A stretch of DNA of 54,125 nucleotides from the NCBI GenBank assembly GCA_947085505.1, contig CAMTWI010000003.1, positions 73,319 to 127,443 of the forward strand. The letters are read 5' to 3'. A model generated the notes under the pieces. The model saw only the letters and a program-made list of their open reading frames with translations. It was not told where the DNA came from and made no database searches. How positions within the stretch are numbered: position 1 is the stretch's first letter; the number at the start of each line of letters is the position of its first letter. The position numbers and the translations under genes were made by a program. This DNA comes from an uncultured bacterium. GTDB lineage: Bacteria; Patescibacteriota; Minisyncoccia; Phycocordibacterales; Phycocordibacteraceae. Below are positions 43,425-48,978 of the stretch, piece after piece.

Positions 43425-45572
43425 CTATAGTTCGTCTTCGTCGGTACTTGTTGCTCCACCTGTACTCAAGATTTCGCGAGGCCGTGACCCGTCAGCGGGG
43501 CCGATGACACCCTTTTCTTCGAGAAGGTCCATAAGGCGTGCGGCACGAGAGTAGCCGATACGCAGTTTGCGCTGGAGGTAGGAGGTAGAGGCACGGCCGG
43601 CTTCTTCAACAGCTTCACGGGCTTGTCCGTAGAGGTCGTCGTCTACATCGTCGTCTTCTCCTGCGAGCATAATCGCGTCATTTGCTTCGTGGACACCGGT
43701 TCCTCCGGTGCCCGTACCAAGATCAAGACTTGAGAGGGAACCGGCATTATGTGCCTTCAAGAAACTCACCACCTTCTTCACCTCCTGCTCGCTAATGTAC
43801 GCAGTTTGAAGGCGAACTGGTTTCTGCATATCTGCCGACTGGTAGAGCATGTCGCCGGCGCCAAGAAGGAGCTCTGCACCAGAAGCGTCGAGGATGGTGC
43901 GCGAGTCGATCTGGCTCGCTACCTGAAGCGCGAGACGAGTAGGGACGTTCGCCTTGATGAGACCTGTAATGACGTTAACTGAAGGACGCTGGGTCGAGAG
44001 GATCAGGTGGATACCGACCGCACGGGACATCTGTGCAAGCCTGACGATGGCACTCTCAAGTTCACGCGGGTAGCTCTGCATGATGTCGGCGAGCTCGTCG
44101 ATAACAATCACGACGTACGGCATGGCCTCAGGGATCTCTTTCGCTTTACGCTTCTTGGCAGGCTCAACGACAGTCGTGTGATAGGACTCAATGTCGCGAA
44201 CTTGGCGGTCCTCGAGAATGGTGTATCGACGTTCCATCTCCTTTGCTGCCCATTTAAGAGCAAAGATAGCTTTCTTAGGGTCGGTGATAACTGGCGTCAG
44301 GAGGTGGGGGATACCGTTATAGAGCGTAAGTTCAACACGCTTCGGATCAATCATGATGAAGCGAAGCTGGTTCGGGCCGTTCCTGAAGAGGAGGGAGGTA
44401 ATAACGGCGTGGATTGCCACAGACTTTCCGGATCCGGTTGCACCTGCAATAAGGCCGTGCGGCATCTTTGCGACGTTCACGTAGTGCGGGGTTCCGGTGA
44501 TGTCACGACCAACGGCAGCCAGAAGCGGTTTCTTTGATGAGGACCATTCGGCAGCGCCAATAACGCCTCCGAGACCAACCATTGCTTTGGATGCGTTCGG
44601 GACTTCGATACCAACCAAAGACTTCCCAGGGATTGGGGCTTCGATACGAACCGGGTGTGCGGCCAGTGCGAGCTCAAGATTTGTCTGAAGCCCAACGATT
44701 TTCTGGAGACGGACACCTTCGGCCGGCTTAATAGCGTAACGGGTAACGGTAGGACCGACCGAGACTTCGTCCATTTCTACGGAAATACCGAAGTTCTGGA
44801 AGGTACGCTTAATAATGTTCGCATTCGCTTTAATGTCCCCGACACCTGGCTTTCCTTTATCTTCTCCAAGAAGGGAGAGGGGAGGTGCCTCGTACTCTGC
44901 GTCAAAGTTTGGGATAGAGGGGTCGGTGCTTACGGACGAAGCTTGGTTGAACATAGTTACGACCGGTTCTTTCTCAGGAGCTTCTTCGTCTTCGGTAGCA
45001 GGTTCCTCGTCGTCTTCCTCAACCTCTTGTTCCTCATCGTCTGCAGCCTTCCTCTCAGAAAGCCGAGGAAGCTTTATGGAAGCAATCTTGTCGCTCGTCG
45101 CATCAGCTGCCTCTTTGAATACGCGTAGAAGCGCAACGACGTCGGTGGCGATGATGAGGCCAATGGCAATGATAGCGAGCAGGATGATAACAGCTCCTGC
45201 AACACCAAAGAGCTCTGCGGCAGCATGTCCAAGAGAGGTACCAGCGACACCTCCAAGAGCGTCTGTGATGATGCCAAGGAAGGTGAGGGTGGCGATGATG
45301 ATAAGTACGATACCGGCTGCGGTGAGGGGAGCGAGGAACGACCGCTCAAGCATAACCGAGAGACCCACACCTATAAGGAGTACCGGTAGAAGAAAAGCCG
45401 CGACGCCGATCACGCTGAAACCAAACCCAAAGATGGCAGTTCCAGCAAGACCAGCGAGACCAAGACAAGCCAATGCAAAGATTAGACCGAAAGCGATAAG
45501 CACAATGCCCGTCGTCCATTTGGCGAGAGCTCGATAGTTGTCCGCATCGCGGCGCTTCCGGCGCTTTTTCAT
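43425..45572 (-). CDS. ftsK: DNA translocase FtsK/SpoIIIE
   Basis: N-terminal TM helices; GPTVTRY, RIEAPIPGK, IAGATGSGKS, IDELAD, TQRPS and gamma domain STSYLQRKLRIGYSRAARL. Confidence 0.97.
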   Translation of the reverse strand: MKKRRKRRDADNYRALAKWTTGIVLIAFGLIFALACLGLAGLAGTAIFGFGFSVIGVAAFLLPVLLIGVGLSVMLERSFLAPLTAAGIVLIIIATLTFLGIITDALGGVAGTSLGHAAAELFGVAGAVIILLAIIAIGLIIATDVVALLRVFKEAADATSDKIASIKLPRLSERKAADDEEQEVEEDDEEPATEDEEAPEKEPVVTMFNQASSVSTDPSIPNFDAEYEAPPLSLLGEDKGKPGVGDIKANANIIKRTFQNFGISVEMDEVSVGPTVTRYAIKPAEGVRLQKIVGLQTNLELALAAHPVRIEAPIPGKSLVGIEVPNASKAMVGLGGVIGAAEWSSSKKPLLAAVGRDITGTPHYVNVAKMPHGLIAGATGSGKSVAIHAVITSLLFRNGPNQLRFIMIDPKRVELTLYNGIPHLLTPVITDPKKAIFALKWAAKEMERRYTILEDRQVRDIESYHTTVVEPAKKRKAKEIPEAMPYVVIVIDELADIMQSYPRELESAIVRLAQMSRAVGIHLILSTQRPSVNVITGLIKANVPTRLALQVASQIDSRTILDASGAELLLGAGDMLYQSADMQKPVRLQTAYISEQEVKKVVSFLKAHNAGSLSSLDLGTGTGGTGVHEANDAIMLAGEDDDVDDDLYGQAREAVEEAGRASTSYLQRKLRIGYSRAARLMDLLEEKGVIGPADGSRPREILSTGGATSTDEDEL

Positions 45573-45649
45573 ATACGTATTCTAGCACCGCACCAGATTC
45601 GGTGCGTACCGGAAAGCCTTTTGTCTGCTTGTCTAATAACGTTGTTGCG

Positions 45650-46522
45650 ATGATGTCCTATGGGACATATACTGACCTTGACGCAATAAAGGACATCATG
45701 AGCGATAAAGGACAGAACAGGGATTCGCATGCGATGAAGGCATATAAAAACAATGCTGACTTTAGTGATTTTGTCCTTGATAAACCAATATTCTCAGGAG
45801 TATTTGAAAAGGACATTAGACGCGTATACCTTTACAAGAAGGCTGAGCGACTCGCGAAAGCCATCCATCTAATCAGTCCAGCATTCGCAGAGTCACCTGC
45901 GTTAAAGGACCGGATTGAACGCATCGCACTCGGTCTTGTCGATGCTTCCGTACTTCCTCCAACTACATCGCGTGACGCACTCTCACGTGAGCTTCTTGCG
46001 CTCTCAAGTATTCTTTCAATTGCACGCACCGGAGGTATGCTGTCGAGCATGAACGCAGATCTCATTGTACGAGAAGCCCATCAGCTGCTTTCAGAGATCG
46101 TAAGCTATGAAGAACCTCGTCTGGTACTCGATGAGATTCCGTCTCTCGCGTCACTTGCGAAAGCATCTGCGGTGAGTGAATCCCGTGAGCGAAGCAGTCT
46201 CCGATCAGTTGCGCGCATCACATATGATTCGGATCTTGGTGCCCATGACATCGCTGAGTATAAAGGACAGTCTAAAGGACACATAAAGGACACATCCAAA
46301 ACAGACGTATCTTCAGCACAAAAGGGAAGTACTAATGGAGATCGTCGAGAGAGTATCCTCGCGGTCCTGCGCTCGAAGGGTCCTTCCTATATAAAGGATA
46401 TCTCCATGATTGTGCGCGACGTAAGCGAGAAAACTATACAGCGAGAACTATCCGGTTTAGTCACTGAAGGGGTTGTGAAGAGGAAGGGGGATCGCCGCTG
46501 GACTACCTACGAGATGGCTTAG
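45650..46522 (+). CDS. Four-helix-bundle plus C-terminal DeoR-like winged-helix protein (start uncertain: 45650, 45698 or 45734)
   Basis: Helical N-domain LYKKAERLAKAIHLI...LKDRIERIA; low-complexity linker; wHTH RRESILAVL...IKDI...VSEKTIQRELSGLV...G. Confidence 0.75.
   Translation: MMSYGTYTDLDAIKDIMSDKGQNRDSHAMKAYKNNADFSDFVLDKPIFSGVFEKDIRRVYLYKKAERLAKAIHLISPAFAESPALKDRIERIALGLVDASVLPPTTSRDALSRELLALSSILSIARTGGMLSSMNADLIVREAHQLLSEIVSYEEPRLVLDEIPSLASLAKASAVSESRERSSLRSVARITYDSDLGAHDIAEYKGQSKGHIKDTSKTDVSSAQKGSTNGDRRESILAVLRSKGPSYIKDISMIVRDVSEKTIQRELSGLVTEGVVKRKGDRRWTTYEMA
45687..46292 (+). repeat. TAAAGGACA direct repeats in two clusters
   Basis: Exact 9-mer at 45687, 45706, 46261, 46273 and 46284; the 7-mer core AAGGACA also at 45809 and inverted at 45772. 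Confidence 0.85.
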
Positions 46523-46540
46523 TTTCGCGTGAAGGCTTCA

Positions 46541-46569
46541 TTGACGAAAACCTTAAATAAGCTTATTAT
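46541..46569 (+). promoter_or_regulatory. Sigma70-type promoter upstream of the long leader
   Basis: TTGACG-17 nt-TATTAT. Confidence 0.65.
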
Positions 46570-46648
46570 ACTGAGCGTGGTAACTGCAGGGAGCTAGGTG
46601 TTCTAAACGGCCGGAAACGGTCTGTTTTGCGTTTAGCTGAAAACACGG

Positions 46649-46657
46649 TTATCCACA
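46649..46657 (+). promoter_or_regulatory. Consensus DnaA box
   Basis: Exact TTATCCACA match; function not shown. Confidence 0.45.
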
Positions 46658-46705
46658 ACGTTTTTGCAGGGTCTATCGCTCGTATCTCTGTATACTAGGT
46701 ATACA

Positions 46706-47000
46706 CCCGCGCGTTCGGTTCTATCCGAACCGCGGGATTCTGAAACGGCTGATACGACCCTGAAAGAAGGGATCCTTGATAAAGGAATAGTGAACAAAAG
46801 TCCTGCGGTGTAAGAACCTGCAGGCACACCCGTCTTCATGAACAGACGGGTGCCTGAAACGGATGCTTTTGATAGAAATGGATGAACGCTTGAATGAATG
46901 ATCATTCGCCAACTAGCCGATGGGACGCTCGTCGATAGTGCGCCCTGTCGGATAGTGTGAACCGTTCGAAAACTCACTCCCTTCCTCTCGGGGAGGGGAG
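46706..47000 (+). ncRNA. Candidate structured RNA / long 5' leader of the surface-protein gene
   Basis: Series of GC-rich hairpins at 46706-46736, 46821-46856, 46917-46951 and 46977-47000; no convincing ORF. Confidence 0.5.
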
Positions 47001-47088
47001 GAGATTACAAAGAGAGATTAAAGGTGCGTACGCGATACGAATTATTACTAGACGTACCGCGCACGTACTTCAACTACTTACAAAAAAT

Positions 47089-48978
47089 ATGATTGCAACT
47101 AGCAACACAATGATCGCGAAGATCTTCGCAGCTCTTGCTGTCGCAGGACTCGTTCTTGGTTCGTTTGCAGCACTTGCTCCAGTAGCAGGCGCTCAGACCA
47201 CGACCACGACGACGACTAGCGGAAGCACGACTACGGCACTTACGTTCATGAACGACCTTACGGTTGGTTCGACTGGAGTCGCGGTAACGTCTCTCCAGAC
47301 TTTCCTCATCGCTAAGGGTTTCAGCATCCCAGCTGGCGCAACCGGATACTTCGGTTCACAGACTAAGGCAGCTGTCGCAGCTTATCAGTCTGCTAACGGT
47401 ATCTCACCGGCTGTAGGTTACTTTGGCCCGATCACTCGCGCTCATGTAAACGCAGCAGGTCCGTCTACTGGTGGTGGCTCTAGCACAGTTCCTGGCTGTT
47501 CAGCCGGCGCTGCGTTTAGCTCCACTACAGGTGCTCCTTGCTCCGGATCTGGCTCTGGTTCTACCAGCGGTCTTTCTGGAGGCGAGGCTCGCCTCTCTTC
47601 CTTCGAACTTCGCCGCGAGGCATCTGATGGTTCAGAAGGACAGGTAGAGGTTGAGGTAGCAACAGCTGAGTTCGATGTTAAGGATGGCGACGTTCGCGTC
47701 GAGCGCATCGAGCTTACTGTTGAGGCTGCTTCTAGCACCCTTAGCATGCTTCCATGGAACTACATCGACCGCGTGTCCGTATGGGCAGACGGCGATGAGC
47801 TTTCTGACAAGCGTTCTACCTCGCGTAGTGACTGGAGCAAGTCCGGAAACAAGTACACGATTGTGCTCACTGACCTCGACTATGTAGTTGATGCAGGAGA
47901 CACAGCGGCACTTACTTTCGCCTTCGACATTAACAGCAGAATCAGGGTCGCAGATCTTTCCCAGACGTTCACCGTCTCGGTCCGCGATAGCGGAGTTCGT
48001 GCTGTTGATAGCAAGGGCATCCAGCAGTACACCGGAGCAAATGCTAAAACTGTATCCTTCGGCTTCAACGCTGAGAAGAACGGAACACTCCGTCTTAGCC
48101 TCAGCAGCAGCAACCCTGCTGCAGCTATTCTCGTCGCAGACGCGAATAAGGAATCAGGTAAGTACAGCGTGTTCAAGTTCGATATCGAGGAGCGCGATGA
48201 TGTGGACACCCTCATCACCGACGTCACTATCGATGTTGCAACAAGTTCTGGCACTGTAATGAATGACATCCGAAACGCGTACCTCGTCATCGATGGTGAT
48301 GAGTTCCGTGGAACAGTCAATGCCGCCGGCACTATCACGTTCGACGCTGTCGACGTTGAGGTTGGAGGTAAGGACAAGATCCAGGCTGAGCTCAAAATCA
48401 CTCTTGCGCGCGCCGCAAATGCAGGATCACTCACGTTCTCTCTTGACGCTGATGACCTCGTTGCTGAAGGTGTAGACAGTGGAAACGCTTCTACGGTTAC
48501 CGGTTCTGCGGACGGAAAGACTCACACAACGGCTCTCTCTGGTATCGCAGCTAAGGCAGTATCCACCAGTCAGTCTGTATCGACTCCTGGTTCTGCAGCC
48601 TCTTCAACCATCGGTACCTACACCATTAGGTTCGACGTAACAGCTCTTGAGGACAATGCATTCATCGACGATGTTGCAGCTTCCTCAACTACTGAGGGTG
48701 CAGGATTTGTTATCTTCGGTGACAGCTATGCTGGAACCATCTCAGCAATCCTCACCTCGACTGCTACGCTTGATGGCGGTACACGCTACATCGTTCGACA
48801 GGGCACTACCGAGACGTTCACGCTCACGGTAACGCTTGACCCATCAGCTGCAGGCACCTTCGGTGTTCGCCTTGATAAGGTTAGGTTCGCTGCTACAAAC
48901 GCGACTGCAACTGCAGGCCTCACGATTGATGCAAGCAACCAGGACTTCCGCACCAACGCGGTCTACATCGCTAACTAA
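47089..48978 (+). CDS. Large secreted cell-surface (S-layer-like) protein with a peptidoglycan-binding-like domain
   Basis: Signal peptide, T/S/G linkers, DLTVGSTGVAVTSLQTFL...TGYFGSQTKAAVAAYQ...GYFGPITR (PG_binding_1-like), a Cys pair and beta-rich repeats. Confidence 0.8.
   Translation: MIATSNTMIAKIFAALAVAGLVLGSFAALAPVAGAQTTTTTTTSGSTTTALTFMNDLTVGSTGVAVTSLQTFLIAKGFSIPAGATGYFGSQTKAAVAAYQSANGISPAVGYFGPITRAHVNAAGPSTGGGSSTVPGCSAGAAFSSTTGAPCSGSGSGSTSGLSGGEARLSSFELRREASDGSEGQVEVEVATAEFDVKDGDVRVERIELTVEAASSTLSMLPWNYIDRVSVWADGDELSDKRSTSRSDWSKSGNKYTIVLTDLDYVVDAGDTAALTFAFDINSRIRVADLSQTFTVSVRDSGVRAVDSKGIQQYTGANAKTVSFGFNAEKNGTLRLSLSSSNPAAAILVADANKESGKYSVFKFDIEERDDVDTLITDVTIDVATSSGTVMNDIRNAYLVIDGDEFRGTVNAAGTITFDAVDVEVGGKDKIQAELKITLARAANAGSLTFSLDADDLVAEGVDSGNASTVTGSADGKTHTTALSGIAAKAVSTSQSVSTPGSAASSTIGTYTIRFDVTALEDNAFIDDVAASSTTEGAGFVIFGDSYAGTISAILTSTATLDGGTRYIVRQGTTETFTLTVTLDPSAAGTFGVRLDKVRFAATNATATAGLTIDASNQDFRTNAVYIAN

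Follow-up and report, generated by a model that had tools for sequence, protein, structure and literature searches.

Why does the gene of a predicted DNA-binding protein carry the same 9-mer again and again, and what reads it? The question is raised by a 54,125-nucleotide stretch of DNA (the window; C3:73319-127443 of assembly G000, which comprises 515 kb in 4 contigs with 52% GC), in which the gene of a protein with a C-terminal winged helix-turn-helix (wHTH) domain is marked by five exact copies of TAAAGGACA, hereafter called the box. All five are on the plus strand, inside or at the wHTH gene: at 45687 and 45706 near its 5' end, and at 46261, 46273, and 46284 further downstream, the last three being spaced by 12 and 11 nt. 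An original prediction, made from the sequence of the window, had described these copies as two clusters, and every position and spacing was confirmed. Also present are the additional AAGGACA cores it had listed at 45809 (plus strand) and 45772 (minus strand), its palindrome, and the near-matches it had placed near 45903 and 46392 (TTAAAGGACC at about 45901 and TATAAAGGATA at about 46390). Judged from sequence, the boxes are most likely an operator code for an uncharacterized DNA-binding protein of the candidate phyla radiation (CPR), residing in the protein's own gene and shared with modules at the origin and the centromere.

The box and its positions at the gene

The clustering of TAAAGGACA in the wHTH gene is not due to chance. 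The window holds six copies, while 0.28 are expected, and this number was reached in 0 of 100 shuffles. The sixth copy (38512, minus strand) had escaped the original prediction, which had noticed the 9-mer nowhere else in the window. Genome-wide, we counted 16 copies against a Markov expectation of about 4, and these counts ruled out the explanation that TAAAGGACA is simply a common word. Clusters, defined as at least two boxes within 80 nt with one mismatch permitted in the TAAA prefix, were found at five places in the genome: two in the wHTH gene, two at the cca-xth locus outside the window, and one weak pair. Since raw counts of TAAAGGACA per genome did not discriminate it from a reversed-word control, pair and composite patterns were used for comparisons between genomes.

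Among the 9-mers with the strongest over-representation in the genome are ACCGACGTT and GGTATTGGTA, with 25 to 33 copies. Of the 27 copies of GGTATTGGTA, 25 fall in a single, highly repetitive stretch of coding DNA on contig C2 (C2:19000-38300), and this word is unrelated to the box. The box system is absent from the literature that was searched: among the matches listed, a search for the 9-mer gave only unrelated primer and oligonucleotide matches, and a search on CPR oriC gave no paper containing "Patescibacteria". The feature itself is real and strongly conserved; its existence, positions, and genomic distribution were read directly from the assemblies.

At the 5' end, box cores occupy the predicted promoter of the gene. 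A consensus scan detected a sigma-70-type promoter, TTGCGA-17-TATACT (45645..45673, plus strand), and its -35/-10 spacer is filled by the perfect palindrome ATGTCC-TATG-GGACAT (45653..45668), which consists of two inverted box cores. This palindrome, a candidate primary operator, lies inside the predicted promoter, as the site of an autoregulated repressor should. In many genus orthologues, a conserved -10 element TATACT runs directly into GTCC (TATACTGTCCTATA) approximately 12 nt before the ATG, and the box core is therefore upstream of or at the likely transcription start. Box 1 (45687..45695, plus strand) ends 2 nt before the ATG at 45698, and its AAGGA is a possible Shine-Dalgarno sequence. 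This ATG (MSDKGQ...) is almost certainly the true start of the gene, according to the orthologue N-termini (MxDKGQ or MxDIGH) and the 274-aa NCBI model. Therefore, box 1 belongs to the 5' leader, at Shine-Dalgarno distance and outside the coding sequence, and the original description of repeats embedded in the gene holds for the other four exact copies.

Box 2 (45706..45714, plus strand) covers codons 3 to 6 (DKGQ). It is followed by the inverted pair TGTCCTT (45772)...AAGGACA (45809), which spans 45770..45817 and encloses a 30-nt AT-rich spacer; this region has 30% GC, the genus consensus TTTGTCCTAGAAAAAnnnATATTTnnnAACATATTTGAAAAGGACATA, and strong synonymous constraint. The second cluster is an array of three exact boxes (46261..46292, plus strand) in the DNA for a disordered linker, where it reads YKGQ-SKGH-IKDT; the genus consensus of the array is TAAAGGACAT(A/G)TAAAGGACA. 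Finally, the degenerate box TATAAAGGATA (46390..46400, plus strand) falls on the wHTH codons IKDI, with Ile encoded by ATA in 18 of 19 orthologues, and in several orthologues this site is an exact box.

Conservation of the boxes with the gene

The 19 orthologues in the same-genus codon alignment share 50 to 64% amino acid identity and have GC contents of 45 to 61%. All 18 complete same-genus loci carry boxes both at the 5' end and in the linker, two to nine in each locus, with varying number and spacing. Most alignment columns with invariant residues are synonymously saturated, including those of VSEKTIQREL, GERRW, and SRELLALSS. In contrast, the codons of the box cores are frozen: the N-terminal Gly of box 2 is GGA in 18/18 sequences, and in the inverted pair Val is GTC in 18/19, Ile is ATA in 19/19, and Asp is GAC in 19/19. 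The linker boxes behave likewise (Lys AAA in 15/17, Gly GGA in 16/17, and Asp GAC in 16/16). Excess codon homozygosity was 0.53 in box-core columns and 0.13 in the remainder of the conserved columns (Mann-Whitney p=9e-5).

The boxes are also read in more than one frame. Across the orthologues, 46 boxes are translated as xKDx and 27 as xKG(H/Q), and the window gene itself uses DKGQ, YKGQ, and SKGH versus IKDT and EKDI, the two frames to which the original prediction had pointed. The commonest spacing between boxes is 11 nt, followed by 12, about 21, 33, and 41 to 44 nt; since 11 is not a multiple of 3, the reading frame shifts from box to box. Because of the synonymous-site test, the two frames, the occurrence in both orientations, and the non-coding copies, selection acts on DNA rather than on peptide, as had been proposed for this locus. 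We conclude from the alignment that the boxes are under nucleotide-level selection. They lie mostly in DNA coding for the disordered N-terminal tail and the linker, and the KGH and IKD peptides are most readily viewed as by-products.

The boxes persist beyond the genus, and in homologues at the genus, order, and class level the nucleotides are kept, not just the amino acids. Order-level homologues (about 30% identity, GC contents of 35 to 47%) carry up to nine AAGGACA copies at the 5' end and in the linker. In class-level homologues, we found arrays of TATCGGACA, TATTGGACA, TAATGGACA, TAAGGGACA, or TATAGGACA, and the class-wide form of the box is TA(A/T)N-GGACA. Among 201 genomes of the class, a direct pair AAGGACA-N(1-30)-AAGGACA was located within the homologue gene or beside it in no fewer than nine genomes of five families, where chance would produce such co-location at approximately 0.002 per hit. 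For G058 and G118, two complete genomes from other families, the homologue gene holds the only TAWNGGACA...GGACA direct pair of the genome (G058) or two of its three pairs (G118). The boxes thus travel with the gene family across the class, which is the behavior expected of autoregulatory sites of the encoded wHTH protein. One homologue differs: at G169:C23:84549-86149 (L049), GGACA is lacking, four AAACGACA repeats are present, and SVKTLQRDL takes the place of SEKTIQREL in the recognition helix, possibly a single case of co-variation of box and helix.

What kind of protein is encoded next to these sites? The coding sequence (45698..46522, plus strand) was delimited and described using orthologue N-termini, AlphaFold2, Foldseek, and a sub-threshold Pfam match. 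AlphaFold2, with 43 homologues, predicts a disordered tail (residues 1 to 28), an up-down four-helix bundle (29 to 136; predicted local distance difference test score of about 90), a disordered segment (141 to 211), and a winged helix (212 to 273); the second box cluster does fall into an inter-domain linker, as originally proposed. By Foldseek, the wHTH resembles Z-alpha, DsrD, Fur/PerR, MecI/BlaI, ArsR, and the centromere-binding protein AspA, with weak E-values (E >= 0.008), and the bundle resembles PDB entries 2rld and 2gsc of the S23p/intervening sequence (IVS) type, with template-modeling (TM) scores of 0.65 to 0.72 per target and weak E-values of 0.05 to 0.1. HTH_DeoR (PF08220) scores 15 bits, below its cut-off of 21, at the C-terminal residues 216 to 262; weak matches to it occur in 38 of the 43 homologues (best E 4.9e-6), and the N-terminal domain has no Pfam match. 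The recognition helix SEKTIQREL and the wing GERRW (GxRRW) are invariant in the 43 homologues.

The family comprises more than 1500 homologues, and among the matches listed all those with a source name are from Patescibacteria, Parcubacteria, or Paceibacterota. Their annotation is "hypothetical", save for a few generic automatic "ArsR family regulator" labels. Of 41 relatives, 37 have an orthologue; the gene resides on the chromosome, is conserved in a single copy, and keeps a fixed synteny with ftsK. The linkage of gene and box, together with an invariant helix and wing that parallel the invariant GGACA, is the main argument that the encoded protein would read the boxes.

The divergent neighbor is ftsK (43425..45572, minus strand), with the Pfam domains FtsK_SpoIIIE, FtsK_alpha, and FtsK_gamma. 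Its synteny with the wHTH gene is kept at the genus and order level, and the two genes are adjacent and divergent in G027 and G037. Both appear near-leaderless across the genus (45573-45600; L002-L019), with a conserved -10 element TACAAT or TATACT only approximately 12 nt before the starts. Owing to this neighbor and to the strand bias of the boxes on contig C3, we weighed whether the box is a polar word read by FtsK, similar to the FtsK-orienting polar sequences (KOPS). This was rejected: there are only approximately 80 sites, which are enriched near the origin and not the terminus, and the strand bias arises from the purine richness of the sense strand (46 sense versus 25 antisense).

Downstream of the wHTH gene, a promoter-like TTGACG-17-TATTAT followed by a terminator-like hairpin (46541..46622, plus strand) was detected by consensus scan and is kept in the genus alignment. 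The hairpin GGCCGGAAACGGYC and its T-run come approximately 40 nt after the promoter-like site, directly 3' of the wHTH stop codon (46541-46630), genus-wide. This element may be a short small RNA (sRNA) of about 55 to 70 nt, or the wHTH gene's own terminator. It is followed by TTATCCACA (46649..46657, plus strand), one of three perfect DnaA boxes in the genome; in 18 of 19 genus loci such a box occurs 55 to 255 nt past the wHTH stop codon, and it lies approximately 33 nt upstream of a conserved -10 element TATACT for the long leader of the next gene, which encodes a PG_binding_1 surface protein. The leader (46670-46956) contains genus-conserved blocks, such as CTTTGATAAnnGAATAG and CCAACTAGCCGATGGGACGC..GTCGATA..GCGCCCTGTCGGATAGTG, matched nothing in Rfam, and may represent a new cis-regulatory RNA. 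A known RNA family was discarded as an explanation: Rfam gave nothing credible at 45300-47200 and only tRNAs at the cca locus.

Box modules at the cca-xth locus

Where else are the boxes found? With at most one mismatch, they are enriched on C3, both as sites (46 of 82; p=1e-9) and as loci (26 of 60; p=0.001), and no such enrichment on C3 was seen with the reversed control word. In the complete genome G017, all seven exact copies of TAAAGGACA fall within 724 to 872 kb, around dnaA at 782 kb. In G000, the cumulative GC-skew minimum is at C3:28-46 kb and spans the cca-xth locus, while dnaA is at 64.6 kb.

The cca-xth locus carries a parS array. Palindromes similar to parS, with at most two mismatches (GTTTCACGTGAAAC), occur at seven sites, all of them at C3:39469-40565 (L025:4470-5579); four are inside the coding sequence of cca (CCA-adding enzyme) and three in the following spacer, and the location of parS in cca is kept in five relatives. 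On one side, the array is bracketed by four boxes inside cca (C3:39267-39330), in three reading frames. The other side reads TAAAGGACA-gag-TAAAGGACA-acta-TGTGGATAg-AgTGGATAA-...-TGTCTTTTA-tga-TGTCCTTTA, and the last box of this xth-side module contains the xth stop codon. The layout of a box cluster, the parS array, and a module of box or boxes, DnaA box, and inverted box recurs in G017, G023, G003, G020, and G029, and the DnaA box is a perfect TGTGGATAA in the modules of G017, G023, G020, and G029. Synonymous conservation in the cca box region was 0.76 versus 0.53, over 7 columns only.

On the other side of cca, 2 to 3 kb away, a composite TGTCCTTTATCCCCA-N12-TTATCC is present in five genomes. 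In G000 it reads TGTCC-ta-TGTCCTTTATCCCCA-N12-TTTATCCCC-tgt-TGTCC (C3:37350-37405; L025:2350-2405), with DnaA-like boxes (TTATCCCCA) overlapping the TAAAGGACA box by 3 nt, and it is kept in G003, G020, G017, and G023. This composite and the xth-side module may mark a bipartite oriC around cca and parS, 24 kb from dnaA. In the 201 class genomes, the pattern GGACA-N(0-12)-TGTGGATAA gave 40 hits versus 7 for the control word, and it was commoner where a homologue of the wHTH protein was detected (19/35 versus 50/166; Fisher p=0.006).

The boxes are nevertheless a different word from parS, although TAAAGGACA clusters bracket the parS array. Those in the wHTH gene are not copies of the 16-bp palindrome tGTTTCACGTGAAACa clustered near the origin; the gene has one parS look-alike with three mismatches (GTTTCGCGTGAAGG), whose first base is the final base of the stop codon. 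The original suggestion of a centromere- or iteron-like site therefore survives in part: boxes do bracket parS and flank DnaA boxes, but they do so at cca-xth, 79 kb away, and not beside the ftsK promoter.

What the boxes may do

How could these observations be connected? With moderate confidence, we propose from the sequence comparisons that the boxes are operators of the encoded protein, serving repression of its own promoter, an intragenic auxiliary operator, and binding to the origin and centromere modules. The protein would bind TA(A/T)NGGACA via its wHTH domain, with the nearly invariant helix and wing contributing recognition. Box cores that fill or abut the -10 region (the palindrome ATGTCC-N4-GGACAT here, TATACTGTCC in relatives) and further boxes on either side of the start codon would, when occupied, block RNA polymerase, so that the gene would be negatively autoregulated. 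Auxiliary operators would be provided by the inverted pair at +75 to +120 and by the three phased boxes approximately 570 bp downstream; an oligomer assembled via the bundle domain could bind them cooperatively, with a loop or a roadblock as the outcome, and looping between the two clusters may be one option among several. The coding DNA could accommodate boxes since those positions encode the disordered N-terminal tail and linker. Near the GC-skew minimum, the same protein would occupy the modules around the DnaA boxes and on both sides of the parS array, and its autoregulated level would thereby be tied to origin or centromere function. The identity of the binder, repression, oligomerization or looping, and an effect on DnaA or ParB are what we infer; the conservation and the synonymous constraint of the boxes are observed.

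Several points weigh against this proposal. The link between protein and box consists of co-location and co-conservation, and the box core is too invariant across the class for convincing covariation of helix and box. The order-level genomes G029 and G026 are without the gene, but ftsK is cut at a contig start in the former and missing in the latter; the absence is thus due to an unassembled locus, and the two genomes offer no clean presence/absence contrast. Oligomerization of the bundle is suggested by weak fold similarity (Foldseek E>0.05, TM scores of 0.65 to 0.72 to the target). The oriC at cca-xth was identified only by skew, parS, and one or two DnaA boxes, with dnaA 24 kb away. Helical phasing is not universal, as arrays in family f25 are spaced by 15 to 18 nt and are all in one frame. 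Furthermore, box conservation partly coincides with the conserved peptides EKDI, IKDR, and IKDI, so that protein-level constraint contributes at some positions.

If the wHTH protein is not the binder, the boxes could be bound by a different protein, an origin- or cell-cycle-associated factor or a nucleoid protein, with the wHTH gene as a regulated target. We regard this as unlikely, though it is the most probable of the alternatives. It would account for the boxes at the parS/DnaA-box locus and inside cca, and the conserved perfect DnaA box after the wHTH gene could place this gene in an origin-linked regulon; the nature of the tie between protein and box, co-location and co-conservation, also leaves room for it. 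However, it is always the wHTH family, in many families of the class, that carries the arrays with the highest density and the widest conservation, and in the two complete genomes mentioned above the homologue gene holds the only or main direct pairs. Self-recognition is the simplest account of arrays in the gene's own disordered-coding segments, and the invariant recognition helix parallels the invariant GGACA core. An action at the RNA level, with Shine-Dalgarno-like sequences or target sites of an RNA-binding protein or sRNA serving translational control, an internal start, or ribosome pausing, is improbable. AAGGA does resemble a Shine-Dalgarno core, box 1 ends just before the start codon, and most copies in the gene are in sense orientation, but the CA of GGACA departs from the Shine-Dalgarno core GGAGG, and no in-frame start codon follows the linker array in the window genome. 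Inverted copies are conserved as well (TGTCC at the -10 region and at codons 26 to 27), and there are copies upstream of the likely transcription start and in non-coding, palindromic modules around DnaA boxes, all of which favors DNA over RNA.

A replication origin inside an initiator-like gene, with the repeats as iterons as in lambda ori in gene O, appears still more improbable. Direct repeats in the linker-coding part of a DNA-binding protein gene, the AT-rich patch (30% GC) near the 5' end under nucleotide constraint, and the DnaA box just downstream would fit such an origin. Yet the cumulative GC skew passes the locus (C3:119 kb) on a monotonic rise that extends between C3:46 and 124 kb; its minimum is 75 to 90 kb away at C3:28-46 kb, and a second origin at the wHTH gene was rejected on this ground. 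Moreover, no replication genes are nearby, and the fixed synteny of this single-copy chromosomal gene does not suggest a mobile element. Least probable of all, and barely credible to us, is selection for the KG(H/Q) and IKD peptides or duplication by slippage with no function at the DNA level. KGH, KGQ, and IKD do recur in aligned orthologue columns, and the one-frame f25 arrays with their 15- to 18-nt periods would be compatible with it. This explanation is largely refuted by the codon test, in which box codons were frozen (GGA 18/18, GAC 19/19, ATA 19/19) and the rest of the gene was saturated; in addition, 11-nt spacing changes the frame, TAAAGGACA recurs in non-coding DNA and in cca, and the box-bearing segments are predicted to be disordered.

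Operators read by the encoded protein could also be part of a larger role. Tentatively, and with clearly less confidence than in autoregulation, we consider that the protein is a lineage-specific factor of the Paceibacteria (CPR) acting on the chromosome origin domain, with boxes that dock DnaA boxes and fence parS. The boxes would stand in fixed register against DnaA boxes, and parS would be fenced inside cca and before xth. An oligomer of the protein could then gate the access of DnaA, or limit the loading or spreading of ParB, and the protein would be kept at a constant concentration by the arrays in its promoter, 5' coding region, and linker codons.

The box system can be compared with known arrays of binding sites, both autoregulatory and origin-associated. 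As in the DeoR, LacI, and GalR loops of E. coli, the protein's own predicted promoter has a site across its -35/-10 region, and further site clusters a few hundred bp away could cooperate via an oligomer. It differs from them in that the candidate auxiliary operators are in the regulator's own coding sequence, in codons for a disordered linker, and that the sites are 9-bp boxes, mostly direct repeats at approximately 11 bp, instead of long palindromes. Although the wHTH domain is weakly DeoR-like in sequence, the original comparison with DeoR does not extend to family membership: the HTH_DeoR match is C-terminal and below the gathering threshold rather than N-terminal and above it, and no DeoRC hit was obtained in Pfam or NCBIfam, the remainder being bundle and disordered segments without a DeoRC or sugar-binding effector domain. 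MraZ, an autoregulatory ring oligomer whose phased direct repeats precede the dcw operon, is likewise a small, widely conserved regulator whose own gene bears direct repeats spaced by roughly one helical turn, with multivalent binding by an oligomer, as proposed here; it has an SpoVT/AbrB-like fold instead of a wHTH, and its box sequence differs. The predicted up-down bundle is shared with 23S rRNA IVS (S23p) and Avd proteins (2rld, 2gsc), which have no fused wHTH and to which the Foldseek E-values are weak; no S23p, IVS, or Avd family model in Pfam or NCBIfam matched the protein and its 43 homologues, even at E<=0.1.

Among origin sequences, phage lambda ori in gene O and SPP1 oriL in gene 38 also have site arrays in the linker-coding part of a DNA-binding protein's own gene, adjoined by an AT-rich stretch. 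Unlike lambda ori, the present array is in a conserved chromosomal gene with no sign of an origin in the GC skew, consists of 9-bp boxes rather than 19-bp iterons, and has no helicase-loader gene as partner. Factors that bind beside DnaA boxes at origins include Spo0A of B. subtilis, CtrA at Cori of Caulobacter, HP1021 of H. pylori, and MtrA of M. tuberculosis, and DnaA itself reportedly binds at the parS centromere of Caulobacter, in work of Mera et al. from 2014. As with these factors, short boxes abut or flank DnaA boxes in fixed register (TGTCCTTTATCCCCA; box-N3-4-TGTGGATAA-N0-2-box) and lie beside a parS array near the skew minimum. Unlike the factors named, the candidate binder is no response regulator and has no receiver domain; it is predicted to consist of a four-helix bundle plus wHTH.

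To our knowledge, little is established about the control of replication, segregation, and transcription in CPR/Patescibacteria, most of which are uncultured. Our analysis offers a testable pair that is conserved class-wide, a 274-aa protein, which should express readily, and a 9-bp box; the box is placed at the promoter of the protein's gene, beside DnaA boxes, and around the parS centromere. It presents a case of regulatory DNA in coding sequence, in which the peptide of a disordered linker (KGH-IKD) would be dictated by selection on binding sites, and it bears on the reading of "conserved" motifs in disordered regions. The boxes may also guide the annotation of origins and centromeres in these genomes. 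If the protein does act on the origin domain, it would add a new regulator of replication or segregation for bacteria that have none of the known ones, with its operator code written into its own coding sequence.

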